64,000 nt of DNA. It comes from an uncultured Pseudomonadota bacterium (GTDB lineage Bacteria; Oederibacteriota; Muellerivitia; Muellerivitales; Muellerivitaceae). Shown here in pieces: positions 30,246-61,002 of the stretch. Made by a program: the position numbers and the translations under genes. The stretch is taken from positions 544,001-608,000 of the forward strand of contig CAWIIP010000004.1 of the NCBI GenBank assembly GCA_963836235.1, read 5' to 3'. A model generated the notes under the pieces. The model saw only the letters and a list, made by a program, of their open reading frames with translations. It made no database searches and was not told where the DNA came from. Positions within the stretch are counted from its first letter, which is position 1. Each line of letters begins with the position of its first letter.

Positions 30246-31933
30246 TGATTCACGGTTACCTCACAGCCCCAACGGATATTCGGCCCAAGGCATTCCGAGG
30301 AGGTCTCGGGATCTTATTTTTAGGAATAGCCACGTTCGCAATGGTTTCATTAGCCGGGGCTCAAGTCTTGAGTACGGGGGGGACCGAATCCCCATTTGAG
30401 TTGGGGGGATCGGCTTGGTCCCTGGGGATGGGCGGGGCTGTGGCGGCGGTCTCGGGTTATGGGGACAGTTTTTTTGAGAATCCGGCAGCCTTAGCAACGG
30501 TTCAGGAACATGAAATTCTCACCTTTCACGCTCCTTTATTCCTCGATACTCTTTATGATTCCGTCGGTTATATCCATCCTATCGGAGCGAACAATAGCTT
30601 CGGTCTGGCTGTAACCCGATTGGGGACTTCGGGAATCTTTCAAACTCAAAATAACATTGAAGCCATTTCCACCTTTTCTTCCGAGGAGTATGAAGGGCTT
30701 TTGAGTTATGGGTTTCGCCTTTGGCCTGATTTGGATTTGGGGGCTTCGGTAAAATACATCTTTGAGCAATTATTGACTTATCAGGGAAGCGGCGCGGGGT
30801 TGGATTTGGGTCTTCTTTACCATTTTTCAAGAAGCCACGCGGATTTTAACCAGGTTGGATTCCGGAATATCACTCTGGGGTTCTCGGTTTCCAATGTTCT
30901 CCAACCGCAAACCAAACTTTTCCAGGTCGCGGATAACCCGGCTCGTGTTTTTCGCCCCGCCTTTTCTTACTATTATCAATTCCCGGGATCCCGAAACGAT
31001 TTTTGGGTGATGGCGGAAGGTGAATTTCCCTATAGCGGTGAAAAGCTCGTTAAGGCGGGTCTTCAATATGGGTGGAACAATACCGTTTTCGTCCGGACCG
31101 GATTTGACGGGACGGGACCCACGGCAGGCGCAGGGATAAAGCTTTATGATTTCGAGTTCGATTACGCCTACGACCAGCAGGATTTGGGGGCTTTGAACCA
31201 GTTTTCGCTGACTTACCGATTCGGGCGTTATGTAGACCCGCTTCAGGCTCAAAAAATTGATCTCTTGAAATGGGTAGCCCAAAGCTATTCCAAGGACAAC
31301 GATTTTGATCCAGCCATCAAAGCTTGGCAAAATGTATTGAGGGAATTTCCGGACGACACGGAAGCTCCGCAGGCCATCAAGGATCTTCAGCACCAGCGTA
31401 AAAATCTGGTTCAGGACCAGCTTCAGATGGCGCGGTCGGCCATGAGCCGGGGAGATTATGAGAAGGCATTGCCCTTGATCGCCAAGGTTTTGAGCTTGGA
31501 TCCCGGTAATCCGGATGCCAAGAAGCTCTTAAGCCAAATTGATAAAAAGACCTTGGTTTCCACCAATTATACACGCGGGGTGGAAGCTTACAGCCGTGAG
31601 GATTACGGACTGGCGATTCAATATTTGGAAATGGTCTACGAAGTGGATTCCCATTACCGGGATGTCAATTATCTTTACCACGACGCGCAAAGCCATTATC
31701 TTCCCTTGGAATCCATGCCCAAGGAATTAACCGAGCTTTATGCCCAGGGAGTGAATTACTATATGGGCGGAGATTATCGGAAAGCCATCGATGCTTGGGA
31801 ACAAGTGCTGAACAAGAGTCCTAAAAACTTCCTCGTTCGTCGCAATATTGAGGATGCCAGAAGACGTGTGAATGATAAGGCTGTTCCGGAAGATACTTCT
31901 ACTGAAAATCAGGAGCTTAAAAACAAACCATGA
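30242..31933 (+). CDS. PorV/PorQ-like beta-barrel fused to C-terminal TPR domain
   Basis: 'FELGGSAWSLGMGGA..FENPAAL', barrel ending 'FDYAY..LG..NQFSLTYRFG', followed by TPR helices. Confidence 0.8.
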   Translation: MMIHGYLTAPTDIRPKAFRGGLGILFLGIATFAMVSLAGAQVLSTGGTESPFELGGSAWSLGMGGAVAAVSGYGDSFFENPAALATVQEHEILTFHAPLFLDTLYDSVGYIHPIGANNSFGLAVTRLGTSGIFQTQNNIEAISTFSSEEYEGLLSYGFRLWPDLDLGASVKYIFEQLLTYQGSGAGLDLGLLYHFSRSHADFNQVGFRNITLGFSVSNVLQPQTKLFQVADNPARVFRPAFSYYYQFPGSRNDFWVMAEGEFPYSGEKLVKAGLQYGWNNTVFVRTGFDGTGPTAGAGIKLYDFEFDYAYDQQDLGALNQFSLTYRFGRYVDPLQAQKIDLLKWVAQSYSKDNDFDPAIKAWQNVLREFPDDTEAPQAIKDLQHQRKNLVQDQLQMARSAMSRGDYEKALPLIAKVLSLDPGNPDAKKLLSQIDKKTLVSTNYTRGVEAYSREDYGLAIQYLEMVYEVDSHYRDVNYLYHDAQSHYLPLESMPKELTELYAQGVNYYMGGDYRKAIDAWEQVLNKSPKNFLVRRNIEDARRRVNDKAVPEDTSTENQELKNKP

Positions 31934-34332
31934 ACTTGTCCCCCCTCCTTTACCGTATTCTTTCCCGCCTTCCCTTTGAGCCTAGACGAAGGCTTTACCG
32001 ACTGGAAGTGGAAGCCAAAGATATCGAGCTTCTGACGATCAAAGATTTTGTCCAGAGGGTTTGTGACTCGGCAGGCTGCACGCCAAAGGAAACATCCAAT
32101 ATCAAGCTGGCCATTGACGAAGCCTGCAGCAATATTATTCGCCATGCTTATAAAGATAAAGAGGGAGGAAAGATCAATTTAGAGATGGGGATCGGTTTTT
32201 CCGACTTGATGATAAAAATCATTGATTACGGCAAGCCCTTCGATTTCAGGGGTGTCAAAGATCCCGACTTGAACCATTACGTGGACATTGGGAAAAAAGG
32301 AGGGCTAGGTATATGGCTGATTAAGAAAGTCATGACTGATGTCCGTTATAAAGCTTTTCCAGACCACAATGAACTGATCCTTTACCGCCGTCTTTCGAAA
32401 GCTCCGCCTAGGGAATTGGGCCTCAAAAAGGGAAGCTATTCGGTTTCAACTAAATTCTCTTTGGGATCGATAGTGTTGATATTTTTTATCATTGCCTCCG
32501 CCTTTTTTTACCTGAACAAACAGCAACAAGCGCGGGTTTTCCAGCAACAAAGGGAAAGTGTGACTACCTTACTCGAGACGATGGCTTCTGAATCGGGTAT
32601 TTTTATGGCTCGCAAAAGCGATCTTGAATTGGACCGGTTGATTAGGGAAGTGCTTCGGGGAGACAAAGACAAGGTTTTAAGCTATGCCTTTGCCGTTAGT
32701 TCCGAGGGGAGATTTCTAGCTCATTCGGATTTAAACCAGCTATTCAAGTCTTATACGCCTCCTCCTGGCGTTCAAACAAGCCGGATACCAGGTATCCAAA
32801 TCTTCCGTGTCAAAACGGCCGAGGGGCCTTTAACGGATTACTCATCCGCCGTTTATTTTCATGGCCAGTGGATGGGCGAGGTCCATTTGGGCGAGAGCGA
32901 TAGCGCCATCCAGCAAATAGCTTCCAGAGTAAAAATCGATTTAGCGAAATTGATGGGTTTGATTGTTCTCGTCAGTGTTATTGGGCTTTATTTCCTTTCT
33001 CGTATTTTCATTAAGCCTTTCCAGAAAATTTTGGAAGGGGTTCATGCCATGAGTACAGGGAATTTTAACGCCAAAATTGACGTAGAAAGTCAGGATGAAT
33101 TCGGCCAATTGGCCAGCATCTTCAATGATATGACCCTCAAAATCCAGGATTCTCAGAAGGGAATGGTGGAGAACGAGCGAATGCAGAAGGAAATGCAAGT
33201 GGCTCAAGAAATCCAGCACACCCTTTTGCCTGGAGAGTTTCCACAAATCGAAGGTTATGAGATTGGGGCCACTTACCGGGCTGCCAAGGAAGTGGGTGGC
33301 GACTATTATGACTTTTTCTGGGTGGATCCAACCACGCTTGGCATCGTGGTGGCGGATGTTTCGGGCAAGGGTGTTCCTGGATCTCTTGTCATGACGATGA
33401 TCCGGACCGCCATGCGCCTGGAATCACGGGGCAACCGTTCGTCCTCCAGTGTTTTGGGAAAGGTCAATCAGCATGTCACCGCAGATATGAAACGGGGCAT
33501 GTTTGTGACAATGTTTTACATCATCCTAGATTCTCGGAACCGCTCGATCAATTTCTCCAGTGCCGGGCACAACCCAATGATCTTGTATCGGGGAAAGACA
33601 AAAGAAGTCTATTTCTTGAAACCCAAGGGTTTTCCGGTGGGGATTGATCTTCCCGAAGAGGATATGTTCGTTAAAAATCTTGCCCTTCAAAAGGTCAGCC
33701 TTGAGAAAAATGATATGTTGGTGATTTATACGGATGGAATTACCGAAGCAATGAATCCTGAAAGCGAGCAGTTTGGCGAAGATAGGCTTATCAATGTTAT
33801 TAAGGAAAATTCCAATCTCACTCCCGCGGAGTTTGTGGCTAAACTTAACGAGGCTATCGCCCAATTCACCCGCGGGGCAGAACAGAACGATGACATCACG
33901 ATCGTAGCCATTAAAGAAAAAATGAAAGCCGAGAATGTGGAGTTCAAATTCCGAAAAAAACTCTTGAATTTGGTCGAAAAGAAAGGCTTGTCAGTGATAG
34001 AAGCCTGCCGACAAATGAATACATCGACAAACACCTATTACCGATTTAAAAAAATCTTTGTTGAGAAGGGTAAAGATGGATTGAAGCCGGTGAAAAATAT
34101 GAAGCGAGGGGATATCAAGGAACTTCCCCTTCCCCAACAGCAGGCGGTAATGGCAATGGTTCGGGAACACCCTGAATACGGCGCAAAGCAGATTATTGAA
34201 GCGATTTTGAAAAATTCGACTCCGCCTATGAAGGTTGACCCGAAGTTGGTTTCGAAGTTCTTAAAGCGAAAGGGCTTGGCGGATGTGAAAGCCCGGGAAG
34301 CCCTTGGTGTTAACCAGGTTGACAGGGTTTAA
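31930..34332 (+). CDS. Membrane protein: RsbW-like kinase domain, TM-sensor-TM, HAMP, SpoIIE/PP2C phosphatase, C-terminal HTH
   Basis: 'LAIDEACSNIIRHAY', 'GGLGIWLIKK', HAMP 'DEFGQLA..FNDM', 'VGGDYYD', 'ADVSGKG', 'SAGHNP', 'YTDGITEA', 'DDIT'; HTH 'SVIEACRQMNTSTNTYYRFKK'. Confidence 0.9.
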   Translation: MNLSPLLYRILSRLPFEPRRRLYRLEVEAKDIELLTIKDFVQRVCDSAGCTPKETSNIKLAIDEACSNIIRHAYKDKEGGKINLEMGIGFSDLMIKIIDYGKPFDFRGVKDPDLNHYVDIGKKGGLGIWLIKKVMTDVRYKAFPDHNELILYRRLSKAPPRELGLKKGSYSVSTKFSLGSIVLIFFIIASAFFYLNKQQQARVFQQQRESVTTLLETMASESGIFMARKSDLELDRLIREVLRGDKDKVLSYAFAVSSEGRFLAHSDLNQLFKSYTPPPGVQTSRIPGIQIFRVKTAEGPLTDYSSAVYFHGQWMGEVHLGESDSAIQQIASRVKIDLAKLMGLIVLVSVIGLYFLSRIFIKPFQKILEGVHAMSTGNFNAKIDVESQDEFGQLASIFNDMTLKIQDSQKGMVENERMQKEMQVAQEIQHTLLPGEFPQIEGYEIGATYRAAKEVGGDYYDFFWVDPTTLGIVVADVSGKGVPGSLVMTMIRTAMRLESRGNRSSSSVLGKVNQHVTADMKRGMFVTMFYIILDSRNRSINFSSAGHNPMILYRGKTKEVYFLKPKGFPVGIDLPEEDMFVKNLALQKVSLEKNDMLVIYTDGITEAMNPESEQFGEDRLINVIKENSNLTPAEFVAKLNEAIAQFTRGAEQNDDITIVAIKEKMKAENVEFKFRKKLLNLVEKKGLSVIEACRQMNTSTNTYYRFKKIFVEKGKDGLKPVKNMKRGDIKELPLPQQQAVMAMVREHPEYGAKQIIEAILKNSTPPMKVDPKLVSKFLKRKGLADVKAREALGVNQVDRV

Positions 34333-34381
34333 GGCTAAAGTGATAATAAGGCCCGCAACGGGCCTTATCTTCGGAGGAAGC

Positions 34382-34744
34382 ATGGAAAATATTTCGGTTA
34401 GCGTATCTGAGCATCCACAAAATAAAGAAATAACCCTCCTTGCGGTAAAGGGTTTTATTGACACGACTACGGCTCCGGAGTTTGAAAAGAAATTTCTAAC
34501 GGTATTGGGTGAAAAGAAATTCAAACTGGTGGTTGATTTGAAAGATGTCAATTACATCAGCAGTGCCGGTTGGGGTATTTTTATCAGTGAAATTAAACGT
34601 ATTCGCAATCAAAAGGGGGATTTGGTGCTGGTTGGAATGAATCCCGAGGTCTCGGAAGTTTTCGAGCTGTTAGAATTTAACACTATTTTAAAGTCTTTTC
34701 CGAATGTCGAAATTGCCATTAAGAAAGGTTTTGAAAAGCCGTAA
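34382..34744 (+). CDS. STAS-domain anti-sigma factor antagonist (RsbV/SpoIIAA-like)
   Basis: 'KGFIDTTTAPEFE', 'VDLKDVNYISSAGWG', 'EVFELL'; GGAGGA RBS before ATG 34382. Confidence 0.92.
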   Translation: MENISVSVSEHPQNKEITLLAVKGFIDTTTAPEFEKKFLTVLGEKKFKLVVDLKDVNYISSAGWGIFISEIKRIRNQKGDLVLVGMNPEVSEVFELLEFNTILKSFPNVEIAIKKGFEKP

Positions 34745-34782
34745 TCCAAAGGATTTGAAGATCCGAAAGTTGGAAAAAAGTT

Positions 34783-35922
34783 ATGGAATCGGCCGCTTTA
34801 ACCTCCCTCATTGAAATCGAAGGGAAAAACTTTACACTCGAAACCTCTCCCGTATCAGGTAAAAATCGTCTTTCTTCCCTTATTCAATTGGGAGGGAGGA
34901 CACTATCTCAACGTGAGTTTGAAATACCTGAGGGGCTGGATGAGGATGGATTAAAGCATTTTCTGCAGGAAACCCACCGTATCCGTTCTGTGGAGCTTGA
35001 ATCCCTATTTCGCTTGAATCGGAAGATCGATGAAAAACCGACGACTGACGCCTGCTGGAAAATAGGGGTTATCTTCCTTTCTAATGGTTTTTATGAAGAT
35101 TCTCGCCAAAAATTCCAAAAAGCAATCGAAATGGATCCCCGCCATTTACAAGCCATCAAAAGCTACGGAATTACTTTAACTCTACTGGAAGATTTTGACG
35201 GGGCCTTAGCCACCCTGAACCAAGCGCGGGAGTTGGGACCTTCTTTTGCTGATATTTATTACCATCTCGGCAATGTTCATTTATATAAACGGGAATTGGA
35301 TGAATCCGTTCAGTGTTACCTTCAAGCCCTTCAAATCAATCCTCGTTACGCGGACGCCCGATTAAGGCTGGCCACTGCTTGTATGGGGTATTTGGCCCAA
35401 TCTTCCAACCAATTATCCGAACCTAAAGTAGCGGAATTATCAGAAAGGACCAAGACCGAAGCTGAAACGGCGGCTACGCTCAATCCAAAAGTCCGCAATC
35501 GGGCCTATATGATGGCAATGGATTTCTTGCGAAGTAAAAAATACTCGCAAGCTTTTCAATCTTTCATGGAAGTTCGTCCGCGGTATGTGCCTCGTATCGG
35601 CGATGAAATTATTTTTTTCTTCACTCTAACATTGTTATATGGAAGCGAAGGCATTGACCAGCAAATGACGGAACAGTATGTCGATAAATTATGTAAGGTT
35701 ATCGAAGAATTTCCCCATTACGCGGATCTCCACCACCATTTGGGTACTGCTTACTTGATCAAGTGCCGTTTTGATGTTAATCGCTCACTGAAGGAATTCA
35801 AAAAGGCTTTGGAGATTAATCCTCAATTTCAAAAGGCAATGACAAATTCGGTCGACACCGAAGATTTGCATAAGAAAGTGTTAACGGTTCTGAAAAAAGC
35901 AATCATGCCGCAGGGGAATTAG
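34783..35922 (+). CDS. Cytoplasmic TPR protein
   Basis: Multiple TPRs ('FADIYYHLG', 'ALQINPRYADA', 'YADLHHHLG'). Confidence 0.82.
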   Translation: MESAALTSLIEIEGKNFTLETSPVSGKNRLSSLIQLGGRTLSQREFEIPEGLDEDGLKHFLQETHRIRSVELESLFRLNRKIDEKPTTDACWKIGVIFLSNGFYEDSRQKFQKAIEMDPRHLQAIKSYGITLTLLEDFDGALATLNQARELGPSFADIYYHLGNVHLYKRELDESVQCYLQALQINPRYADARLRLATACMGYLAQSSNQLSEPKVAELSERTKTEAETAATLNPKVRNRAYMMAMDFLRSKKYSQAFQSFMEVRPRYVPRIGDEIIFFFTLTLLYGSEGIDQQMTEQYVDKLCKVIEEFPHYADLHHHLGTAYLIKCRFDVNRSLKEFKKALEINPQFQKAMTNSVDTEDLHKKVLTVLKKAIMPQGN

Positions 35923-44632: not shown

Positions 44633-44795
44633 GGGACATCATTTTACTTTAAACCCAATAGGTATTGAGGGATGGCTATACCAAATCTTTACTCACATTG
44701 GGTTTACTTTTTCATGCATTTTGGAAGCCGGGACATGGAATGGAATCATGTGATAGGATAAAACAATTGAGTATTGGCTTTTATTTATAAAGAGG

Positions 44796-46136
44796 ATGAT
44801 CGTGCGATCTTATGCTGAAATCTCAAAATTGAAGCTGGTTTGTTTCGTCTCCCTGGGGGTGATGGTCCCCATTTTTGCCGTTGCTCAATGCCCGAACAAT
44901 CCAGTCCTCACCCCTACTCTATGGGCGGCTGGCACAGGCAGTGCCACCTATTCCAGTTCCAGTCAGGCATATACCGTCATTGGTACTGGAACCTATGCTA
45001 ACGGACAGCATTACGAAAATGGTTCCGCGGATTTAATGACATTGGCGGGAAATGGGCAAATCATAGCGGAGGTCACGAGCATTTCAGGGAATTTAGGCTC
45101 GGATACGGTTGCCGGGATTTTCATCCGTGGTGATAACACCGCAGGGGCGGATGGAGGCCTCTTGTGGATAAGGGGATCGTCACGTTCCCAGTACCAATTT
45201 GCCGCGAGAATCAATGACGGCCCTTTGACCGAAATAGAGTCCGGAACAGTTCCTTCGCTACCTTATTGGCTACGTCTTCAAAACTCAGGGAATGTCCTTT
45301 ATCCCTCAGTCTCCACGAACGGTAGTGCCTGGACCCTCTTACCGGCTTTGGATTTGACTTCCGATAGCGCATTTATTGCTGGCAGTACCCTGGCGTACGG
45401 ATTAATGGTTTGGAGCGGAAGCGACAGTAAACCAACCACAGCGGTTTTCGGTAATGTATGCGTGAATTCCGCATTCAGCCCATATCCAACCTTGACCCCT
45501 ACCTTCACGCCGACCCCAACCTTGACTGCAACCTACACGGCCACTTCAACATCCACGTCATCATCCACCCCCACCATTCTGTCCACTCGAACTTTCACTC
45601 CCACCAATACCATGATTTTCACCACCACGCAAACGCCCAGCTTGACCCCGACCAACACGGTCAGGGTTACACCCACCTCATCGCCCACCCGGACCTTTAC
45701 GTCCACTCAGACCAACACGCCCATTTCAACCTTCACCCTCAGCTCCACCTTTTCTGAAACCAATAGCCCGACTTTCACTCACACGTCCACGATTACCCCT
45801 ACTCCCACTAATACATCGAGCCCTCTTCCTACCGGAACACCTACCAATACTTCAACCCCTCCTCCTGGCTTGAAGGTTTGGCCCAACCCTTTCACGCCGC
45901 TACTCCCGACCAACAATATCACCCATTTCCTGTTACCTGAAGGCCATGGCGCTGGACGATTGTTGATCGCTGACTTGAAGCGGAAACTCGATCGCTCAAT
46001 TGATTTCGGGTCGGGGGCGGACGTTCAATGGGATGGCAGGGACAACGGTGGAAACGCCGTTTCTGCCGGCGTTTATCTTTATCTTTTGGAATCGGACGGT
46101 ATGGTTCGTCGGGGAACCATCACCGTAATGCGATGA
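44796..46136 (+). CDS. Secreted concanavalin-like (DUF1349-like) protein with Thr stalk and type-B-like T9SS CTD
   Basis: Signal peptide, 'AGIFIR..LPYWLRLQ..S.NGSAWT', Thr tract, CTD WPNPFTP..WDGRD..AGVYLY..GTITVMR. Confidence 0.78.
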   Translation: MIVRSYAEISKLKLVCFVSLGVMVPIFAVAQCPNNPVLTPTLWAAGTGSATYSSSSQAYTVIGTGTYANGQHYENGSADLMTLAGNGQIIAEVTSISGNLGSDTVAGIFIRGDNTAGADGGLLWIRGSSRSQYQFAARINDGPLTEIESGTVPSLPYWLRLQNSGNVLYPSVSTNGSAWTLLPALDLTSDSAFIAGSTLAYGLMVWSGSDSKPTTAVFGNVCVNSAFSPYPTLTPTFTPTPTLTATYTATSTSTSSSTPTILSTRTFTPTNTMIFTTTQTPSLTPTNTVRVTPTSSPTRTFTSTQTNTPISTFTLSSTFSETNSPTFTHTSTITPTPTNTSSPLPTGTPTNTSTPPPGLKVWPNPFTPLLPTNNITHFLLPEGHGAGRLLIADLKRKLDRSIDFGSGADVQWDGRDNGGNAVSAGVYLYLLESDGMVRRGTITVMR

Positions 46137-48001
46137 AGTTAAAAATTAAAAGCGTTTTCACCACCAAACCACTAAGGCGCCAAGAATATCGAAAAGAGGC
46201 TTGTTTCTATTTAAGTATTCATTTTTTTTATTTCACTTGGTGTTGTCTTAGCGCCTTGGTATTTATTTTCGACTTTGGCTGCAGTGAAGCCGCATTTTTG
46301 GATTTTAGCCCGCCCGCCCGGGAAGCCGCCTTAGGAGGGAATGGGGTGGCTCTTCCGGAAGGAACATCCAGCCTGGCTTTTAATCCGGCAGGCCTTGGGG
46401 ATGAATACCGATTTGAAGTTTCGGCCCGCTATGAAAATCTTTTTTCAGGGATCGATGGTGACAACCTTTCCACTGGAAACCTGTCGGCGGTTTTCCCATT
46501 GGACATAGGGGACGGTTTAGGCTTTTCTATCGACCACTTTGGTGCCAACACTCTCCAGCAGGATCGGTTTCAGGCCGCGTTCGGAAAAAGTTTTGAAGCT
46601 AATTCCTTTCTCCATCACTTAAGGTTGGGCGTCAACCTCTCTTACTTTCGGCAACAATTCACACTTTTGGCTCCCCTGGCCGGAGTGAATCCCGCTAATG
46701 TCTCGGCGGGAACCCTTTCGGTTGGAGTTGGAGCACTTTATAACGCTTTCTCTTGGGGTACTCTCGGGATTTCCGCCGAGAACTTGAACCAGCCTAATCT
46801 CGGGGTAGTGGGTGTTGACACGGTACCCATTCTGCTTCGGTATGGTGTGGCTGTTCTTCCGCCAATGGGGACTGATCGGTTGGCTTTTACCCTTGCTCAA
46901 TCCTTGAGCGCAGGCATATTGGATACTCAGGCTGGAGCTGAATGGAATATTACTCGTTGGGGTGTTTCCTTAAGGGCTGGAGGCGATGCCAATATGGGAG
47001 TAGCCGGATTTGGGTGGAGGACTAATGGCTTGAGGATTGATTACGCTTACCAATTCTCCTGGAACCAAGCGCCTGCCCTCAATGGAGTTGGACTGCCTGG
47101 AAGCTCCCTCTTGGAAGTGGGATTTAGCTGGGAAAATACCTCGCGGGAGGGAAAGGTTTTCGACGAATTGGTGTTGAAAGGGAAAGCGGCGCTTAAAGAT
47201 CAGCAGTGGAAAGATGCTTTTTGGGACTTCCAACAGGCTTATTTGTTAAAACCTTCCGACCCCTCGGTTCTTCAAGGTCGCTCGGAAGCCTTGAAGCAAT
47301 ACAATCATCAGCGGGCAGAAGCCTATTACCAAGCTGGGGACAAAGCTGAAAACCAAGGCTATTTCCTGGAAGCCCAACGGAACTATGAGTGGGCCGGTTC
47401 TTTGGCTCCCGAGGAAGTAAGGTATTCTCAAGCCAGGGATCGGGTGAAAAAATCAATGACACAGGGAGCATTAGGGGATCCTAGGGTCGGGGATATTTTG
47501 GAAAAATCGATGATATTCGTGAAGAAGGGGGAAAACGGGGAGGCCTTAAAGAAAATCAAGGAAGCGCTGGCTCTTTATCCTGGGGACGCGTTCCTTCAGT
47601 TCGTCGCCAAGGCATTTGCCCGAAAGAGCAGTTCGCCGGCGGAGCATGAGGATAAAAAGATGGAACAATTGGCTGCGGAAGCGGAAATCTTTCGTAGCAA
47701 GGGACGATTGGACCTCGCTCGCGACACATGGCAGGAGATGCTGAAGGCGGATCCTTCCAACGCAATGGCTCGGGAAAATCTTTCCGAAAACGCGACAACT
47801 GGACCTGCTCAAACCCTCTCCGAATCCCAAAAGAACCAGGTCCAGGCGCTTTTGCAAAGGGGGTTGAAAGCTTACGCCAATGGGGATACGGAAGCGGCCG
47901 TGAAAGATTGGGAGGATGTCCTTCTGATCGATCCCCTCGATGTGAATGCCTTGAATAATTTGACCCGCGTCAAAATGGAAGAAGGGGGCGATAAAAAGTG
48001 A
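46133..48001 (+). CDS. PorP/SprF- or PorV-like beta-barrel fused to C-terminal TPRs
   Basis: 'AREAALGG..FNPAGL', 'NLNQPNLG', 'RIDYAYQF', followed by TPR helices; ATGA overlap with the cargo gene. Confidence 0.75.
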   Translation: MKLKIKSVFTTKPLRRQEYRKEACFYLSIHFFYFTWCCLSALVFIFDFGCSEAAFLDFSPPAREAALGGNGVALPEGTSSLAFNPAGLGDEYRFEVSARYENLFSGIDGDNLSTGNLSAVFPLDIGDGLGFSIDHFGANTLQQDRFQAAFGKSFEANSFLHHLRLGVNLSYFRQQFTLLAPLAGVNPANVSAGTLSVGVGALYNAFSWGTLGISAENLNQPNLGVVGVDTVPILLRYGVAVLPPMGTDRLAFTLAQSLSAGILDTQAGAEWNITRWGVSLRAGGDANMGVAGFGWRTNGLRIDYAYQFSWNQAPALNGVGLPGSSLLEVGFSWENTSREGKVFDELVLKGKAALKDQQWKDAFWDFQQAYLLKPSDPSVLQGRSEALKQYNHQRAEAYYQAGDKAENQGYFLEAQRNYEWAGSLAPEEVRYSQARDRVKKSMTQGALGDPRVGDILEKSMIFVKKGENGEALKKIKEALALYPGDAFLQFVAKAFARKSSSPAEHEDKKMEQLAAEAEIFRSKGRLDLARDTWQEMLKADPSNAMARENLSENATTGPAQTLSESQKNQVQALLQRGLKAYANGDTEAAVKDWEDVLLIDPLDVNALNNLTRVKMEEGGDKK

Positions 48002-49410
48002 AGTTGACGACAAGATTCTTCTTCAGCCACAGCGGAGTTATGGTGGTGTCCCTTCTCGTCAGCTTCTTTCTTATTTATGAGGGATCCCGTCTGCTTTATC
48101 AACGGCAGGCGAAACTGAGTCAAGCTCAGAAAATTTCCGATTTTGCCCTTGCCGCTAAGGAAGCCCTGATCCAACACGAGGATGTTGCTGTTTTGAATTT
48201 TATGAGGTCGGCCGTGGAAAATCCAACCGTGGCTTACGCGGCCTATTCTAATCCTTCTTATGGTACTCACGTTGTTTTGCCGGGTTCATTTCAAAAAGAA
48301 TCGTTCACTTCGGGAACCGGAAAATTCGCCCTGTCTGACTCTCCCATTCGGCGCGATTTTCAAAACGGGATGAAAGTCCTGGAATGGACAACTTCGGTTC
48401 GGTTGGAAAATGGGGAAATGGGACGTGTTTGGCTGGGTTATTCTTTGGCCGCGCTGGAAAAAGACCTAAAAGACCAAACCGCAAAGTGGATGCGCTTAGA
48501 ATTGGAAGCGGTCGCCGTCGCGCTGTTGGTTGGTCTTTTGGTTTCCGTGATATTGGGTCGACAAATGGCTGCTCCACTGATGAAAATCCGTAATGGGATG
48601 CAATTGGTGCGTTCGGGCAAACTCGGTTCCCTGGTGGAAGTGAAACGGAAGGACGAGATTGGGGACTTGGCAAGGGATTTTAATTCCATGGTCGTACAGC
48701 TTAAGGAACTGGACGAAATGAAACGGGATTTCGTTTCGGGTGTTACGCATGACCTGGGAACACCCCTGCACGCAATCCGTAGCGCCATCAATTATCTCCA
48801 AGCTGGCGACGCGGGGCCCTTGACGGAGAAACAATCCGAGTACCTTTTAATGGTTGCCAACAGTACCGCCAACTTAACCGCCTTCATCAACAACCTTTTA
48901 ACCACCGCGCGCATCGAGGCAGCCAAGGTAGACCCCTACCCAGAGCCAGTTGATGTTTATGCCCATATAAAGGAGTTAGTAGATCTCTATCAGCCTCAAG
49001 CGGCTGAAAAAGGCGTCAAGCTTACTCTCGTCAGGAAAACCCAATATATTTCCTTGGTCGCAGACGTGACTATGTTCCGGCAAATTGTCCTGAATCTCCT
49101 TTCCAATGCCTTAAAGTTCACGGTTCGCGGTGAAGTGGATATCATCCTTTCAGAACATGATGGAGACTTTGTTTTGGAAGTTAGGGATACAGGTATCGGA
49201 ATCGATTCCCAGCACCATCAGCTCATTTTCGATAAGTTTTACCGGGTTCACCAACCGCCTGGAACGCCCGCGCGTCAGGGAAGCGGACTGGGGTTGACCA
49301 TTGTCAAGGGTTTGGCGGAGGCTCATGGAGGTAGAGTTACGGTTGAAAGTACTGTTGGAAAAGGGAGCGTTTTTAGAGTGTTTCTCCCCAAGCAGCCTCG
49401 AAGGTTTTGA
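47998..49410 (+). CDS. HAMP-domain sensor histidine kinase
   Basis: Two TMs, HAMP 'DEIGDLARDFNSM', H-box 'VTHDLGTPL', 'NLLSNALKFT', 'DTGIGI', 'GSGLGL'. Confidence 0.95.
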   Translation: MKLTTRFFFSHSGVMVVSLLVSFFLIYEGSRLLYQRQAKLSQAQKISDFALAAKEALIQHEDVAVLNFMRSAVENPTVAYAAYSNPSYGTHVVLPGSFQKESFTSGTGKFALSDSPIRRDFQNGMKVLEWTTSVRLENGEMGRVWLGYSLAALEKDLKDQTAKWMRLELEAVAVALLVGLLVSVILGRQMAAPLMKIRNGMQLVRSGKLGSLVEVKRKDEIGDLARDFNSMVVQLKELDEMKRDFVSGVTHDLGTPLHAIRSAINYLQAGDAGPLTEKQSEYLLMVANSTANLTAFINNLLTTARIEAAKVDPYPEPVDVYAHIKELVDLYQPQAAEKGVKLTLVRKTQYISLVADVTMFRQIVLNLLSNALKFTVRGEVDIILSEHDGDFVLEVRDTGIGIDSQHHQLIFDKFYRVHQPPGTPARQGSGLGLTIVKGLAEAHGGRVTVESTVGKGSVFRVFLPKQPRRF

Positions 49411-49531
49411 AATAGTTGGAGGACTAGGGATAATAGTGGATAAAAAATAGCGGATTGTACTTCCACAAATAAAATCCATAAGAGTGTGCTGAAAAACACA
49501 TTTTTAGTAAACTGTTAAATATAAAGGCCAC

Positions 49532-50224
49532 ATGAAACAACCTTCGATTCTGATGATTGAAGACGATCAATCCGTATCCACTCTGACTCGGGATCTTTTC
49601 CTGAAAGAAGGATATGCTGTTAAGACCGTTTCCAATGGCGCGGAAGGGCTAAGCCTGCTCCAGCGGGAGGAGTTCGATCTTCTTGTGTTGGACTTGGGCT
49701 TGCCGGACATGAATGGATTGGATATTTGCTCCCGAATCAAGAGGGATTCGGTGCGCGGCAAAATGCCTATCTTCATTCTGACGGCTCTAGGCTCTTCTGA
49801 GGATATCGTCAGGGGTTTGGAAGCTGGTGCCGAGGATTACCTTCCAAAACCATTTAACGAGAGGGAATTCTTGGCCCGGGCTCGGGCCATTTTGAGGCGT
49901 AGGGATCCCCTGTTGTCTAAGGATGAGCAAATTGTTTCGGGTAAAATTAAATTGTCTCTCGCATCCCATGAAGCTTGGTGCTCGGAAAAACCGATTCAGC
50001 TTACTTTGCGCGAGTTTGATATTCTCCGTATATTTCTGGCCAACCCCGGTAAAGCCTTGACACGGGAAGAGATCGTGAAAATGGCTTGGGGTCCGGCAAC
50101 CGCTATTGTTCCCAAGGTAGTAGACGTTCATATCGGCCATTTAAGGGTTAAACTGGGGTCAGAAGGAAAGCGAATCGATACGGTTCCCCAGGTCGGCTAT
50201 AAGTTGGTACCTCCCAAAAAGTAG
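49532..50224 (+). CDS. OmpR/PhoB family response regulator
   Basis: REC ('IEDD', 'LDLGLPDMNG', 'EDYLPKPF') plus winged helix ('LTLREFDIL', 'VDVHIGHLRVKL', 'TVPQVGYK'). Confidence 0.95.
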   Translation: MKQPSILMIEDDQSVSTLTRDLFLKEGYAVKTVSNGAEGLSLLQREEFDLLVLDLGLPDMNGLDICSRIKRDSVRGKMPIFILTALGSSEDIVRGLEAGAEDYLPKPFNEREFLARARAILRRRDPLLSKDEQIVSGKIKLSLASHEAWCSEKPIQLTLREFDILRIFLANPGKALTREEIVKMAWGPATAIVPKVVDVHIGHLRVKLGSEGKRIDTVPQVGYKLVPPKK

Positions 50225-50254
50225 TGCTTCCGCCACCCCTTACCCTTGTATCTC

Positions 50255-50292
50255 TATACGGTTTCTTTACTGGTTTTATACCGGCTTTTTAC
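50255..50292 (+). promoter_or_regulatory. Four phased 11-bp direct repeats (candidate OmpR/PhoB-type box)
   Basis: TATAC 50255, TTTAC 50266, TATAC 50277, TTTAC 50288. Confidence 0.65.
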
Positions 50293-50390
50293 CCCTCGTA
50301 ACATTTCTAGAATGTATTTTACTTTCATCTATTTGATTAAGAAGGTCCATGAACTTCTTGTGTTTTCAAATAGATGGATAGAAGGATCTT

Positions 50391-50522
50391 ATGGAAGAGA
50401 AGAAACTGCAGGAAGTTCCGGTTTGGACCGAAGAACAGTGGGAGAGTTGGCTATATTCATTTGCCACTGAGATAGAAAATGGGAAGATAAAAACTTCGGT
50501 TCCAGCAGGTGATATTCAGTAG
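50391..50522 (+). CDS. Small 43-aa acidic, Trp-rich protein (below the ORF-track cutoff)
   Basis: GAAGGA RBS, then MEEKKLQEVPVWTEEQWESWLYSFATEIENGKIKTSVPAGDIQ*. Confidence 0.5.
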   Translation: MEEKKLQEVPVWTEEQWESWLYSFATEIENGKIKTSVPAGDIQ

Positions 50523-54337: not shown

Positions 54338-54487
54338 ATTTTCCTTCCGCTTATCGAATGCTGTTGCGGCCGCTTTTTAAAGCATCAGCAAAATTATTTC
54401 CAAGGTCCAGAATCATATCACCGAATGAGTTCCCACCGTTCTTTGCGAATCCTAAGAAATCGTCCGCTTTTTAGAACCCACCGAGGT

Positions 54488-54504
54488 GTAAAGAATAGGT
54501 AAAG
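54488..54504 (-). promoter_or_regulatory. Two phased CTTTAC repeats (11-bp period) upstream of the SBBP gene
   Basis: GTAAAG at 54488 and 54499 on the + strand, i.e. CTTTAC on the coding strand of the minus-strand gene. Confidence 0.55.
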
Positions 54505-54627
54505 ACAGATGCAATAAGATTTCCAAAAAAAGCGCTTTTTCGAGGATGGAAAATTTTATCTAACTTGTTAGACAAAAAATGGGTTAAAAGCCAAAACGAA
54601 AATCGTTTTCCGTGGCTGATGAGCGGC

Positions 54628-54641
54628 TTGAACCGGTTCAA
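54628..54641. promoter_or_regulatory. Perfect 14-bp palindrome, candidate operator
   Basis: TTGAACCGGTTCAA in the divergent promoter region. Confidence 0.5.
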
Positions 54642-54651
54642 TTGAAATTTT

Positions 54652-54668
54652 CTTTACTGCTTCTTTAC
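54652..54668 (+). promoter_or_regulatory. Two phased CTTTAC repeats (11-bp period) upstream of the 1955-aa protein gene
   Basis: TTTAC at 54653 and 54664. Confidence 0.55.
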
Positions 54669-54755
54669 CGGGTTAAGAATCAGATTTTTTTAAATTGATG
54701 TAAGATTTCTAATCAACAATTTTTTTAGTGTGTAGAAAAAATATCTAAAACCGAT

Positions 54756-57700
54756 TTGAGATTGTTTACAAGGCGATCAATGTTTTTCAAAAAGAAATCA
54801 AAAATTGTATCTTCTGAAAGCGAAAACTTTTCCAAAAATTGTTTTTTTTTAATGACAATTCCGAAAAGCCGAAAATCGTTCTCCGGGATTTTCCCGAAAC
54901 ACCAAATAAATTTTAAGAAATATCCTTTTTTATTTCTGTATTCTTCTATGCTCTGCTTCTCCTTTGTTGGTGTTGGTCATGCTTGGACAAACGGCAGTTT
55001 TACGGCCGGGTTGACGGGCTGGACGACTTCCTTTGCCAACCCCGGACTTGCCAATGGTTGTACTAATCCTTCGGCGACAGTAGTCAACGCGACTACGGTA
55101 TCGGCTAAAGGCGCAGGTGTTGTTCCCAACTCCGATGGCTTACTTCCAAACCACCCGGCCTGTAGCCCGGACGCAGTCCAGCTTTGGCCGTCCCACGGGG
55201 AAGCTAACCACGGAGATTGGGTCCAAATCCAGCAAACCGATACGGTACCTACCAACGGCAACACTTGTTTCACTTTCTGGTTCGCTGGTGTCTTTGAAAA
55301 CTATCATTATTTACAGGGACAAACCGCTAATAATTCTGACAGTTATCTACTTGTCAACATGATCGTCGGTGGGGCAGTGGTGGCTTCGCTCAACTATAGT
55401 TGGGAAACAACACTTCCTCAAATTATTCAACTTACCAATGCCCAAGTTCCCGCCGTCGGGGACGGTACCGTTTGCGACATCAACGGAACCCCCAACAATT
55501 GGGGTTACGTACCTTGGACCGAGTACGAAATCAACCTTTGCCAATATGCCGGGCAACAAGTGACCTTCCAGGCCACTTTTTATGATTGCGATATGGGCGG
55601 CCATTATGGCTTTGGGAATATCAGTTGCCTTAACTGGAATTCCTGCCCTCCGCCCGCGATGAAAATCACCAAGGCAAATACACCTTCGGGCTTAGTGAGC
55701 GCAGGGCAGACCATCACTTACACCATCAACTATTCGAATGCCGGAACCGGCCCCGCGGACGGAGTCGTCATTAACGACACGATTCCCAATGGGACAACTT
55801 TTGTGCCGGGATCGATGACGAGTAATCCTATTGCCTTTTTTACTAATCAAGTAGGGAACGACCTCATTTGGGACGTGGGATATGTGGCGGCCGGAGCCAC
55901 CGGCAGCCTTTCTTTCAAAGTAACGGCCCCTGATAGTCAATGCGTGACTTTCACCAATGTCGCGGCGGAGACGGATCTCACCGTGGCTTGCGGGACTACA
56001 CCACCTCTCTCCAATCCCGTGACAAATTGGCTGGGTGGATGTACACCGACGCCTTTGCCTACCCATACCGCAACGGATACGACAACAGCTACGAGTTCGC
56101 CAACACCCACACATACTCACACCGCTGTTGCTACCGCTACGAGTACAGCGACGACAACGGATACGAATACAACTACAAATACGCCTACAAACACACATAC
56201 TGTTACCCCCACTCCTTCTCCAACTGCAACCAATACTCCGACCAATAGTCCTACGCCCACCAACACTAATACCGATACCGCAACGCCGACAAACACGCCT
56301 ACAATCACCAATACACCTACTCCCACGAATACCCCACTACCAACCAATACACCCACGAATACCAATACCGCTTTAAGTACCGCAGTGGCTTCTGCTGTGA
56401 CGGGGCCTAGTGCTACGCCCACCATTGATCCCACACCCGTGAATACGATTTCATCCACGGCCGTAACAGGGCCTAGCGATACACCGACAATAGACCCGAC
56501 ACCGGCTAATACAATTGTGTCTACGGTTGGAACGGGTCCAACCAATACACCGACGATAGACCCCACGCCAGCGAATACGGTAGTGTCCACGGTAGGGACG
56601 GGACCGACGAATACACCAACGATAGACCCGACACCGGCGAATACAGTGGTGTCCACAGTCGGGACAGGACCGACGAACACACCGACGATTGATCCGACGC
56701 CAGCAAACACAGTGGTGTCTACGGTGGGTACAGGACCGACGAACACGCCGACAATAGACCCCACGCCAGCGAATACGGTAGTGTCCACGGTAGGGACGGG
56801 TCCAACCAGCACACCGACGATAGACCCGACACCGGCGAATACAGTGGTGTCCACAGTTGGGACAGGACCGACGAACACACCGACGATTGATCCGACTCCA
56901 GCAAACACAGTGGTGTCTACGGTGGGTACAGGTCCAACCAATACACCGACGATAGACCCCACGCCAGCGAATACGGTAGTGTCCACGGTAGGGACGGGAC
57001 CGACGAATACACCAACGATAGACCCGACACCGGCGAATACAGTGGTGTCCACAGTTGGGACAGGACCGACGAACACACCGACGATTGATCCGACTCCAGC
57101 AAACACAGTGGTGTCTACGGTGGGTACAGGTCCAACCAATACACCGACGATAGACCCCACGCCAGCGAATACGGTAGTGTCCACGGTAGGGACGGGACCG
57201 ACGAATACACCAACGATAGACCCGACACCGGCGAATTCGACTGTGTCTACGGTCGGGACGGGTTCAACTAGCACACCGACGATAGACCCCACCCCGGCAA
57301 GTACAACGGTTTCAACGGTAGGGACAGGGCCTACCAATACGGCGACTATTGATCCGACACCGGCGAATTCGACTGTGTCTACGGTCGGGACGGGTTCAAC
57401 CAGCACACCGACGATAGACCCCACCCCGGCAAGTACAACGGTTTCAACGGTAGGGACAGGACCTACTAATACAGCGACCGTTGATCCGACACCGGCGAAT
57501 ACGACTGTGTCTACGGTCGGGACGGGTCCAACCAACACGCCTACGGTTGATCCGACGCCAGCGAGCACAACGGTTTCAACGGTAGGGACAGGACCTACTA
57601 ATACAGCGACCGTTGATCCGACACCGGCGAATACGACTGTGTCTACGGTCGGGACGGGTCCAACCAGCACACCGACGATAGACCCCACGCCAGCAAGTAC

Positions 57701-60623
57701 AACGGTTTCAACGGTAGGGACAGGGCCTACCAATACGGCGACTGTTGATCCGACACCGGCGAATACGAGCGTGTCAACAGTCGGGACACACTCTACTAAT
57801 ACGCCGACGATTGACCCTACGCCAAAGAGCACAAGCGTTTCCACGGTCGGGACAGGACCTACTAATACAGCGACCGTTGATCCGACACCGGCAAATACGA
57901 CTGTGTCTACGGTGGGAACGGGTCCAACCAACACGCCTACGATTGATCCGACGCCAGCGAGCACTACGGTTTCAACGGTCGGGACAGGGCCTACCAATAC
58001 GGCGACTGTTGATCCGACACCGGCGAATACGGTAGTGTCCACGGTAGGGACGGGACCGACGAATACACCAACGATAGACCCGACACCGGCGAATACAGTG
58101 GTGTCCACAGTCGGGACAGGACCGACGAACACACCGACGATAGACCCCACGCCGGCAAGTACAACGGTTTCAACGGTAGGGACGGGATCTACTAATACAG
58201 CGACCGTTGATCCGACACCGGCGAATACGACTGTGTCTACGGTGGGAACGGGTCCAACCAACACACCTACGATTGATCCGACGCCAGCGAGCACTACGGT
58301 TTCAACGGTCGGGACAGGACCGACGAACACACCGACGATAGACCCCACGCCGGCAAGTACAACGGTTTCAACGGTAGGGACGGGACCTACTAATACAGCG
58401 ACCGTTGATCCGACACCGGCGAATACGACTGTGTCTACGGTGGGAACGGGTCCAACCAACACACCTACGATTGATCCGACGCCAGCGAGCACTACGGTTT
58501 CAACGGTCGGGACAGGACCGACGAACACACCGACGACAGACCCCACCCCAGCAAGTACAACGGTTTCAACCGTAGGGACAGGACCTACTAATACAGCAAC
58601 CGTTGATCCGACACCGGCGAATACGACTGTGTCTACGGTTGGAGCGGGTCCAACCAACACGCCTACGATTGATCCGACGCCAGCGAGCACTACGGTTTCA
58701 ACGGTCGGGACGGGACCGACGAATACACCGACGATAGACCCCACGCCAGCAAGTACAACGGTTTCAACGGTAGGGACAGGGCCTACAAATACCCCGACCA
58801 TCGATCCGACTCCGGAAAGTACTGGTATCTCTACAGTTGGAACGGGTCCAACCAACACGCCGACGATTGATCCAACGCCGGCGAGTTCCACGGTTTCAAC
58901 AGTTGTAACTGGGCCTAGTAACACGCCGACGATTGACCCGACGCCAGTGAACACGTCCATATCCACGGTTCAAGCGGGCCCTACCGATACACCCACCATT
59001 GACCCCACACCGGTGAACACCATCATATCCACGGTTGTGACGGGGCCAAGCGCGACTCCTACGATTGATCCCACGCCCGTGAACACGATTTTATCCACTG
59101 TTGGGGCTGGGCCAACGAATACCGTTACTAACACCTTTACCCCAATGAACACCCCGACGGTTACTAACACTCACATCCCCACAAGCACACCTATCGCTAC
59201 TAATACGGCGACGGCTTCGGGAACGGATACGGCCACACGGACCTACACGGATACGACTACTCCCACATCCACTTTTACCATTACCGGTACATCTACCATT
59301 ACTTTTACTGCGACACCGACCCCGTCTTTCGAAGTTACCATGAATAAAAAGGTTTCTTCATCTACAGCGGAGTCGGGGAACATCCTGACTTATTTCTTGA
59401 ACCTAGTCGTGACGGGGAATACGGCTTTCGGAGTGGTCGTGACGGACACCCTTCCGGCCAATGTGACTTACGTTGGCTCCGGGCCCAACAACCCCTCAAG
59501 CCTCCCCGCACCGGTGGTGAATACCGCTGTGGATCAATTGACTTGGGCATTGCCTCCCCTCAATCCAGGGACTTACCAGCTTAGATATCAAACCCAAGTT
59601 AATAATTTCCTGGCGAATGGGACCCAAATCCTTAACCAAGCGGTCATGACCTATCCGGGATCGGTTCCGGTGACGAGCGTGGTGCCCGTGGTGGTGGTGG
59701 CCAATGACGTCGTGATCATCGCGGTGTACAACGAGGCGGGTGAACTGGTGAATCAGATATACACGAATAACGAATCCCAACCCCTCCAGACCGTTTCTAT
59801 CGGAGGCAACAGCGACGTGACGTCCATCAACGGCCCGGGCGGGGCGGTAACGGTTTATTACGCGGGCACGGCGGTCGCGGTTTGGAACGGGGCTAATGCC
59901 AACGGAACGCCGGCTTCCAATGGCACCTACTTCCTTAAAGTGGACAATATCAACAGTACCGGCGCTGTATCCAGCGAGACTCTTCCAGTGGTCGTAACCA
60001 GGACTCTTTATGAGATCACCACACTGATCTACAACGAAGCAGGGGAAGTGGTAAAGCACCTTTATTCTTACGTTTCAAACCTTGGGGAGGCTTCCGTATC
60101 GAGCATAAGCCTTTCCGCTTCGACGATAGACCCGTCTGCGGCGGGCACGGGCACTGTGCCATCCCAATTGAATATTTTATTAAGCAATGGGACCACGATT
60201 ATTTGGGATGGGACGAGTGATAATGGAAACTTCGTGCAAAACGGCCAGTATCTTGTGGAGGTCCATAGCCAAAATGGAACCGGGCCGGGGGCTGTTATGG
60301 TCAAACAGGTGTCAGTGGAAGATCTTAATGCCTCCGCTGGCGCGGGTGTGGTGACCGCTTGGCCCAACATTTTGAAGACTTCCAATGGGCCTATGGTTAC
60401 GACTTTCCATACAAACTCCTCCCTAAACCTGACTTTGAACGCGTCCATTTATACGGTAGCGGGTGAGCTGGTTCATGTGAGCAATGGAAGTCAAGGTGGC
60501 AATCAGGTCACATGGGATGCCACCTGGCTGGCCAGTGGAATCTATATCGCGGTAGTGGAAGAGCTGGATTCCAGCGGCGGAGTACTGAGCCGCCAGACGG
60601 TCAAGCTTGCGATAATTCGTTAA
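54756..60623 (+). CDS. Giant secreted adhesin-like protein: Cys-rich head, DUF11-like domains, 22-aa Thr repeat stalk, FlgD-Ig-like domains and CTD
   Basis: Signal cleavage ..GHA|W; DUF11-like '[19 protein letters not shown]'; repeat [22 protein letters not shown]; YNEAGE..W(N/D)G motifs; ends ASGIY..KLAIIR; likely start ATG 54780. Confidence 0.88.
55005..56053 (+). repeat. ~1.05-kb direct repeat, copy 1 (copy 2 at 61225-62273)
   Basis: Near-identical sequence at offset 6220; only a few synonymous differences seen. Confidence 0.95.
56380..59120 (+). repeat. Intragenic array of about 40 66-bp (22-aa) tandem repeats
   Basis: Repeating STVGTGPT(N/S)T(P/A)T(I/V)DPTPA(N/S)T(V/T)V; boundaries approximate. 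Confidence 0.93.
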
Positions 60624-60893: not shown

Positions 60894-60921
60894 CTTTACT
60901 GTTTCTTTAACGCTTCTTTAC
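60894..60921 (+). promoter_or_regulatory. Three phased CTTTA(C/A) repeats (11-bp period) upstream of the 733-aa paralogue
   Basis: TTTAC 60895, TTTAA 60906, TTTAC 60917. Confidence 0.6.
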
Positions 60922-61002
60922 CCCGCTTTAAGCTTAAATTTTTTAGATTGTGATAACGTTCAATTAATAAAGATCGCAAATAAGTCGGCTTAGAGGTGAT
61001 GA

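Follow-up and report, generated by a model that had tools for sequence, protein, structure and literature searches.

A 64,000-nucleotide stretch of contig CAWIIP010000004.1 (assembly GCA_963836235.1, positions 544,001 to 608,000 of the forward strand), from an uncultured bacterium of the family Muellerivitaceae and referred to below as the window, contains a four-gene operon that probably encodes a trans-envelope relay built from type IX secretion system (T9SS) components and controlling a regulon of surface proteins. The operon comprises, all on the + strand, genes for a secreted cargo protein (44796-46136; an open reading frame (ORF) of 446 aa), a PorV/PorP-like barrel with a C-terminal tail of tetratricopeptide repeats (TPR) (46133-48001; 622 aa counted from the ATG, the open frame beginning further upstream), a histidine kinase (47998-49410; 470 aa, GTG start) and an OmpR-family response regulator (49532-50224; 230 aa). 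Overlaps of 4 bp join the cargo and barrel genes (ATGA, 46133-46136) and the barrel and kinase genes (GTGA, 47998-48001), and a gap of 121 bp separates the kinase stop from the regulator start. The ORFs thus reproduce the four co-oriented genes and both overlaps described in an earlier interpretation of this DNA, hereafter the sequence-only reading.

The kinase contains HAMP, HisKA and HATPase_c domains and the regulator contains Response_reg and Trans_reg_C domains, as found by Pfam and NCBIfam searches, in agreement with the HAMP histidine kinase and OmpR-type regulator proposed earlier. In the kinase, a transmembrane segment is followed by a single Cache-like sensor (about aa 28-168, with conserved E55, E61 and D62), a second transmembrane segment and the HAMP, HisKA and HATPase domains. 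The HisKA kinase, the regulator combining a receiver with a winged helix, and tandem direct repeats that this regulator is predicted to bind are the features expected of an OmpR/PhoB-type two-component system. Given the predicted topology, the operon also shows the hallmark of cell-surface signalling, namely an outer-membrane protein with a periplasmic extension encoded beside an inner-membrane transducer.

The arrangement was followed through 42 loci, comprising 20 genome regions and the best 22 of 31 metagenome loci; several of them are near-duplicates (32 distinct pairs) and one copy (L045) is frameshifted. The kinase is the next gene after the barrel in all 38 loci whose DNA passes the barrel stop, with the 4-bp overlap kept in 28 of them, and the regulator follows the kinase in 36 of the 38 (in the other two the contig ends), being receiver-only in five. 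A cognate cargo gene lies directly upstream of the barrel in 28 of the 42 loci and behind the regulator in five, most of the remaining loci being cut by contig ends; the cargo of L048 has a divergent tag, and in L042, where the contig ends near the operon, no cognate cargo was seen. Because this gene order is kept down to barrels of about 25-30% identity, it is not a product of chance, and the conserved neighbourhood on which the sequence-only reading depended is present. Full-length barrel orthologues occur in 16 of the 31 genomes of the family, and split or distant ones in G006, G017 and a genome of another family (G060). The divergent operons of L182, L183 and L184 finish with a receiver-only regulator, followed by a HAMP-GGDEF protein.

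The cargo consists of a signal peptide, a ConA-like head (about aa 31-225), a Thr/Pro stalk (231-352) and a FlgD-Ig-type tag (about 358-446). Its AlphaFold2 model gives a confident jelly-roll for the head, a disordered stalk and a confident Ig-like tag. In a Foldseek comparison the modelled head matches DUF1349-like, GH16/GH43 and L-type lectin folds, and its Pfam match to DUF1349 has an E-value of 0.048. As modelled, the head is lectin-like in fold, with sugar binding as a putative function. The C-terminal domain (CTD) resembles FlgD_ig at E=9.7e-5, under the cut-off, and scores 18.1 bits against CHU_C, where the cut-off is 27. None of eight orthologous CTDs matched TIGR04131, the model of type-B T9SS tags, at E<=1, and two of the eight matched the type-A model TIGR04183 weakly. 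The lectin-like secreted protein of the sequence-only reading therefore stands as regards its signal-peptide-like N-terminus and ConA-like head, whereas the resemblance of its tag to a type-B signal was not borne out, and on sequence grounds the type-B label is rejected in favour of a FlgD-Ig-like one.

According to the accessible text of PMC12618676, type-B cargos and PorP/SprF barrels are encoded side by side, with one tag subtype per barrel. When orthologous tags from outside the window were made into a profile, this cargo scored 139.7 bits and the runner-up among the ORFs of the genome 34.3 bits. The tag subtype is thus unique in the genome, in keeping with a single subtype for each barrel, as in type-B pairs. 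Under this one tag subtype the heads are exchanged and include ConA-like, malectin, PA14+CBM9, legume lectin, NHL, Big_7 and unassigned forms, with a Pfam match to a head domain in 7 of 11 distant cargos. Since the tag is FlgD-Ig-like and misses the type-B model, the cargo-barrel pair would work like a type-B pair without belonging to that group.

The second protein consists of a 14-stranded barrel (aa 94-333) with an NPA hatch motif and a TPR tail (aa 338-617). Its AlphaFold2 model, based on a 42-row alignment, has 14 strands at 94-333 followed by 14 helices (mean pLDDT 81.6, pTM 0.52). The region thus models as a beta-barrel, and the PorP/PorV-like barrel with long C-terminal TPRs of the sequence-only reading is upheld. 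In the ranking of Protein Data Bank structures the best match is 8gl6_F (E=1.6e-10), followed by FadL and 6h3i_F; 8gl6 and 6h3i are T9SS translocon structures, whose chain F we take to be PorV. The sequence scores point in the same direction from below the curated cut-offs, with E=5.5e-15 for PorV_fam and E=2.6e-9 for PorP_fam. The PorV/PorQ model NF033709 gives 55.8-59.5 bits, against a cut-off of 90 that 16 other barrel genes of the genome pass, and the PorP/SprF model TIGR03519 gives 37-38 bits, its cut-off of 90.55 not being reached. The even number of strands would place the C-terminal TPR tail in the periplasm. Within the tail the two final TPR units are the most conserved, with N608, N609, R612 and E616 among their conserved residues.

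Membrane transducers with various kinds of output adjoin TPR-tailed barrels more often than other barrels, which strengthens the relay reading. Among 147 barrel ORFs of six genomes (this one and the listed barrel loci of five more), classed by home-made profiles, 22 of the 31 TPR-tailed barrels and 6 of the 116 others have a signalling gene in the same orientation within 3.5 kb. The corresponding counts are 17/25 and 11/122 with automatic TPR calling and 11/20 and 4/64 with clusters at 40% identity; related barrels are not independent and the list of the TPR class is partly hand-curated, so that p-values for these comparisons overstate. In this genome alone, all six barrels with a plain TPR tail have a signalling neighbour, as does one of the 18 others. 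Pfam was used to check 93 unassigned downstream neighbours (30 of 34 and 63 of 73 candidates).

The partners of the six TPR-tailed barrels of this genome are four pairs of extracytoplasmic function (ECF) sigma factor and anti-sigma factor, one HAMP-SpoIIE protein with a STAS protein, and the kinase described here. Of the seven ECF sigma factors found in the genome, four have an anti-sigma factor ending in a FlgD_ig domain similar to the cargo tags, and all four adjoin a barrel-TPR gene and a cargo gene (L051, L052, L053 and L054, on contigs C2 and C1). The SpoIIE-linked case is a sister module in the window itself (23871..35922, + strand), in which a 2124-aa cargo is followed by a barrel-TPR protein (30242-31933), a HATPase-HAMP-SpoIIE-HTH protein (31930-34332), a STAS protein (34304-34744) and a TPR protein. 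It is conserved in G003, G012, G031 and G042, the Cache sensor of its SpoIIE protein is homologous to that of the kinase, and it represents a partner-switching output on the same barrel-TPR input design. Elsewhere, the barrel-TPR partners are a HAMP-HD-GYP protein and a HAMP-adenylate cyclase (L140), or a transmembrane TPR-HEAT protein together with a separate receiver protein (L137). A further order, cargo, barrel-TPR, transmembrane FliG protein, MotA and MotB (L068:9915-14814, G035), sets a barrel-TPR gene beside a stator-like motor module and was not counted as signalling. A FastTree tree puts the barrels linked to ECF factors, most of those linked to SpoIIE and those linked to the kinase in different places, on a backbone that is unresolved. 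One barrel of G042 (L153:6167-9643) has a tail that appears by eye to be a helical linker and a periplasmic-binding-protein-like domain, and is followed by a kinase, a regulator and an ECF sigma factor.

The periplasmic domain of the kinase has no Pfam match of its own. A profile of nine partner domains from SpoIIE, HD-GYP and cyclase proteins nevertheless matches the kinase sensor (E=2.4e-6), and the alignment of the two groups by hhalign has a probability of 94.3 and E=1e-7. All four partner sensor domains tested match sCache_3_2, three of them above the cut-off. Non-ECF partners therefore share a related Cache sensor, and the ECF-linked versions have no Cache domain. Apart from kinases, the strong non-seed matches to the sensor among 13,695 ORFs are restricted to one adenylate cyclase and the SpoIIE protein of L073; in the latter locus the same sensor-SpoIIE protein comes after a free-standing TPR protein of 228 aa, whose last unit is similar, beside a divergent barrel. 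In 33 kinases the helices of the sensor (residues 36-72) are more conserved than its beta part (0.63 vs 0.42), with E55 invariant and E61/D62 kept in 91%.

A complex model of the sensor dimer with the TPR segment 502-622 scored 0.53 vs 0.00 for the best control, with a partner pLDDT of at least 74 and agreement between runs in no fewer than 75% of contacts. Of 157 solved complexes 116 attained the mark applied, as did 2 of 215 mismatches; scores at or below 0.60 comprise 18 of the 157 solved complexes and both mismatches, so that 0.53 lends weak support to a contact. Of the TPR-kinase interface or coevolution expected by the sequence-only reading, the first part thus has this weak model support, and the covariation signal is no better than its control. 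A TPR tail specific to each kind of partner was considered and rejected as not diagnostic: on a model of the kinase-type tail, ECF-linked tails reach at most 10 bits and have a distinct shared ending, all seven SpoIIE-linked tails score 22-35 bits, and barrels without a partner score 22-42 bits too.

Cache domains typically bind small ligands, and FadL and TodX are close structural matches of a barrel that carries an NPA hatch motif. The barrel could accordingly be a FadL-like uptake channel, admitting a small molecule that the lectin head gathers and the Cache domain senses. A role in transport is also the reading applied to the Treponema pallidum proteins TP0548, TP0859 and TP0865 (UPF0164), which PMC8407342, in its accessible part, models as barrel plus TPR and interprets as transporters, and the UPF0164 proteins are called PorV/FadL-like in the available text of PMC13749626. 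They resemble the present protein in their 14-stranded barrel, NPA-type hatch and C-terminal helical TPR assigned to the periplasm (PMC8407342, PMC13749626, as far as accessible), and differ in a shorter tail and in being read there as transporters of nutrients, with a TPR that might contact a TRAP transporter. A link of Treponema barrel-TPR genes to a HAMP/SpoIIE gene was not confirmed, TP0854 being absent from the accessible parts of the papers examined. Uptake is, however, highly improbable for the operon: the best structural match is a T9SS chain, the sensor's beta part is poorly conserved and is missing a stretch with AHS that its relatives contain, barrel and sensor family stay the same under heads of unrelated folds, and the ECF-linked versions do without a Cache domain.

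The regions flanking the operon share a direct repeat of 11-bp period with the consensus CTTTACC-N4-CTTTACC, a spacing typical of OmpR/PhoB-family sites. One box lies upstream of the operon (44677..44693, +), and the same box precedes orthologous operons, which makes autoregulation probable. Four tandem half-sites of the same type (50254..50294, +) lie 5' of an unannotated ORF of 43 aa (50391..50522, +), acidic and Trp-rich, whose product is possibly a feedback factor or regulator; homologues adjoin the operon in L031, L037, L169 and L176 and, more divergent, in L035 and L038, and a protein search found it in 3 of the 31 genomes. Further downstream, a weaker box (54487..54503, -) precedes a 923-aa tagged beta-propeller protein (51566-54337, -), and the strongest box of the genome scan, with 28.9 bits (54653..54669, +), precedes a 1955-aa repeat-rich tagged surface protein (54756..60623, +). 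Three half-sites (60895..60922, +) lie upstream of a 733-aa tagged DUF11 protein (61003-63204); it and the 1955-aa protein are predicted regulon members. A scan for sigma-70 promoters and terminators stayed at chance level.

The window holds seven box matches where 0.10 are expected. With a matrix derived from 27 sites of other genomes, 22 matches of at least 15 bits are found in this genome vs 2-11 in three shuffles. The nine matches of at least 20 bits correspond to seven promoters. One belongs to the operon, one to the 43-aa ORF, four to tagged proteins of large size (733-1955 aa) and one to a small protein with putative PilZ-like motifs; five of these seven precede tagged cargo genes, and tagged ORFs number 114 of 3388 in the genome. 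The exact box occurs at least twice in each of the ten genomes whose operon is of the close form, and the remaining 51 genomes have one copy at most (eight of them have one), a count that is partly circular, each of the ten genomes keeping at least one site outside the training regions; a backwards control pattern occurs at least twice in 3 of the 61. Off-locus sites in operon-bearing genomes are intergenic in 11 of 13 cases, and the genes that they precede include those of a GGDEF protein, a PilZ-like protein and two Thr/Pro proteins of large size; in genomes without the operon three of seven sites are intergenic, one of them before a tagged protein. Genomes with divergent operons have no match to the exact box, and variants occur upstream in 5 of 13 divergent loci. 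No close regulator was found at E<=1e-40 in five operon-free genomes, in a search that had no positive control.

Two further observations concern these promoters. In L215 (G013) an exact box precedes a tagged protein related to this genome's predicted regulon members, in a genome that yielded no copy of this barrel and no close regulator. A second, palindromic motif of the AACCG-N-CGGTT type lies upstream of giant surface proteins, in the window at 54600-54640 and in intergenic regions of L033, L034, L036, L168 and L169, which suggests a second regulator.

The genome (3.97 Mb, 99% complete) encodes a Sov/SprA translocon in an ORF of 2028 aa (TIGR04189, 226.6 bits vs a cut-off of 200). In the proposed relay, the cargo would cross the outer membrane through this translocon and stay bound by its tag to its own barrel, on the precedent of type-B CTD/PorP pairs, with its swappable and often carbohydrate-binding head held outward on the Thr/Pro stalk. 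The TPR tail would hang in the periplasm, where its last two units would bind the helical part of the Cache-like sensor. The state of the cargo on the barrel would alter this contact and, via HAMP, the activity of the kinase. As the signal, a ligand or surface contact is somewhat favoured over the loading state of the barrel because the heads are swappable and often carbohydrate-binding; barrel loading would fit too. The regulator would bind the 11-bp-period repeats before its own operon, with positive autoregulation, and before the 43-aa ORF, several giant tagged proteins and some genes related to cyclic di-GMP. The same barrel-TPR input would elsewhere be wired to SpoIIE/STAS, HD-GYP/adenylate cyclase and ECF/anti-sigma outputs. 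The chain of surface sensor, barrel, TPR tail and kinase put forward in the sequence-only reading is thus supported in part, by the barrel model, the gene order, the enrichment and the shared sensor; its type-B label fell away, and covariation between tail and sensor did not exceed the control.

A number of observations weigh against such a relay. Nine of the 31 TPR-tailed barrels have no signalling neighbour, and outside the family the link between TPR-tailed barrels and signalling genes is weaker (6/15 vs 4/72; p=0.05-0.2 per genome). The sensor belongs to a broad sCache_3_2-like group and is also present, away from any barrel, in an orphan adenylate cyclase of this genome. Partnerless barrels and unrelated TPR proteins give scores for the kinase-type last TPR unit too, and ECF-linked tails have only about 120-185 residues, compared with about 285 here. 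The complex score falls in the weak band, in a job unlike those of the calibration, and the run returned no interface. Mutual information between TPR and sensor reached a maximum z of 6.2 vs 7.2 for the HAMP control, the alignment (33 paired rows, effective depth 21) being too shallow to decide. GldM and GldK were not found in the 99% complete genome, in a search that covered these two proteins genome-wide (GldL, GldN and PorU lay outside it) and in which GldM matched no control genome and GldK passed the cut-off in none. Finally, we know of no mechanism by which a conformational change would pass through a PorV-like barrel.

The partnerless barrels and the missing covariation would suit a co-regulated display operon with no physical relay, in which the kinase senses independently, the regulator turns on the adhesins and its own operon, and the TPR tail serves to anchor the barrel or to dock it on the machinery of secretion or of the cell wall. 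The complex of PorE, PorP and PG1035, in which the TPR-bearing PorE binds PorP (PMC9143113, accessible part), offers a precedent, and the autoregulatory box before the operon means that co-transcription requires no contact. Such an arrangement is unlikely, because it leaves unexplained why 22 of 31 TPR-tailed barrels and so few of the 116 plain, fn3 and OmpA barrels stand beside transducers, why one sensor type recurs with different outputs and with the TPR-only protein of L073, and why barrel and kinase are never parted while the cargo moves. Moreover, OmpA-tailed barrels (20 of the 147) already supply a wall-anchoring form.

Alternatively, the cargo itself might reach the kinase. In the available text of PMC12152298, the CTD of PorA binds PorY in the periplasm, needs basic residues to do so and works without PorV. 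By analogy, the cargo tag would bind the kinase sensor when export stalls, and the barrel would only remove cargo. Several invariant Arg residues of the conserved tag, the conserved acidic residues of the sensor and the tag-like FlgD-Ig domain of the anti-sigma factors in the sister modules could be read in this way. Feedback of this type is nevertheless very unlikely: the net charge of the tag (+1) equals the genome median (+1), so that the basic-tag signature of PorA is missing, the type of sensor tracks the TPR rather than the tag (the SpoIIE-linked cargo of the window scores 33 vs 140 bits on the tag model), L042 has no cognate cargo before its contig ends near the operon, and the TPR tail is assigned no role. 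As far as the accessible parts of PMC12152298 and PMC7712824 describe it, the PorA-PorY/PorX-SigP system of Porphyromonas gingivalis does share with the proposed relay a T9SS cargo whose head is lectin-like, a barrel of the PorV type and a two-component system tied to surface-protein expression. It differs in that the available text describes no TPR-tailed barrel, whereas a dedicated TPR-fused barrel is here coupled to the kinase gene, and the operon has an OmpR-type DNA-binding regulator with its own box and an interchangeable output module.

In design the proposed relay resembles cell-surface signalling and takes over the shuttle logic of type-B pairs. With type-B CTD/PorP-SprF pairs it shares one barrel per cargo, neighbouring genes and a cognate tag subtype (PMC12618676, accessible text), and with PorE-PorP-PG1035 a TPR-bearing periplasmic element beneath the barrel (PMC9143113, likewise in part). 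Unlike both, it has a FlgD-Ig-like tag that misses TIGR04131, a PorP score below the cut-off and TPRs fused to the barrel; a signalling link, seen here, is not described in the available text on those systems, and GldK and GldM were not found in this genome with the weak controls mentioned. Outside the T9SS, FecA-FecR-FecI (TonB-dependent) and the lipoprotein relays RcsF-IgaA and NlpE-CpxA each have a transducer in the inner membrane, with its gene nearby, that is controlled by an outer-membrane protein extending into the periplasm. RcsF-IgaA and NlpE-CpxA are named in the accessible part of PMC12152298. The operon likewise has an outer-membrane protein with a periplasmic extension near a transducer gene. 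It differs in the use of a 14-stranded shuttle barrel, not a TonB-dependent transporter or lipoprotein, of C-terminal TPRs, not an N-terminal signalling domain, of a sensing head on a separately secreted protein, and in outputs that include a kinase, a PP2C-type phosphatase, HD-GYP and a cyclase besides ECF.

The genome encodes 21 barrel genes by NF033709 (25 matches) and 24 by a local profile, and ten relatives have 10-61 barrel matches each. Most barrels follow a tagged cargo gene, so that the order of cargo and barrel alone is ordinary in this lineage. Two neighbouring genes considered as parts of the module proved to be mere neighbours: LMF1, present only in this genus among the loci seen, and AraC, which recurs in some loci at varying positions. 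Elsewhere in the genome, the Sov/SprA gene lies directly 3' of a LytTR-type two-component pair and 5' of genes for a 1545-aa tagged protein and a ComF-family protein (L127:7622-16006, contig C1), and two PorV-like barrels with an Ig-like tail and fn3, respectively, lie within a flagellar cluster (L062, C4:900977-904688), an arrangement kept in G003, G012 and G031.

It is possible, if short of probable, that PorV-like barrels with TPR tails form a general, unrecognised class of cell-surface transducers, a T9SS-derived counterpart of the TonB-dependent transducers, in which an interchangeable head on a cognate barrel acts through a TPR stalk on a kinase, PP2C phosphatase, HD-GYP protein, adenylate cyclase, anti-sigma factor or perhaps MotAB/FliG. 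No description of a barrel-TPR transducer was found in the full-text literature, of which few subscription papers and no supplements were covered and some articles were accessible only in part. Searches for this barrel gave one locus by peptide patterns in the genome collection and one weak, unrelated match in a plasmid collection. A profile search, of sequences that carry no gene context, returned few full-length clusters at 50% identity near it and a large number of distant proteins of barrel-TPR or TPR type. Among the look-alike clusters Elusimicrobiota, Zixibacteriota, Calditrichota, Eiseniibacteriota and Spirochaetota predominate; with look-alikes in several phyla, the class could be wide and might recast the "FadL-like" UPF0164 proteins as receptors.

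If the relay operates as proposed, a secretion shuttle barrel would double as a receptor, and bacteria with a reduced T9SS would gain a modular means of sensing surfaces or polysaccharides without import of any kind. With its binding surfaces and operator predicted, the circuit is open to tests on small soluble fragments, even in an organism known from its genome only. The relay would also suggest a testable function for the TPR tails that barrel-TPR proteins of the widespread PorV/UPF0164 kind, now read as transporters, have in the periplasm.

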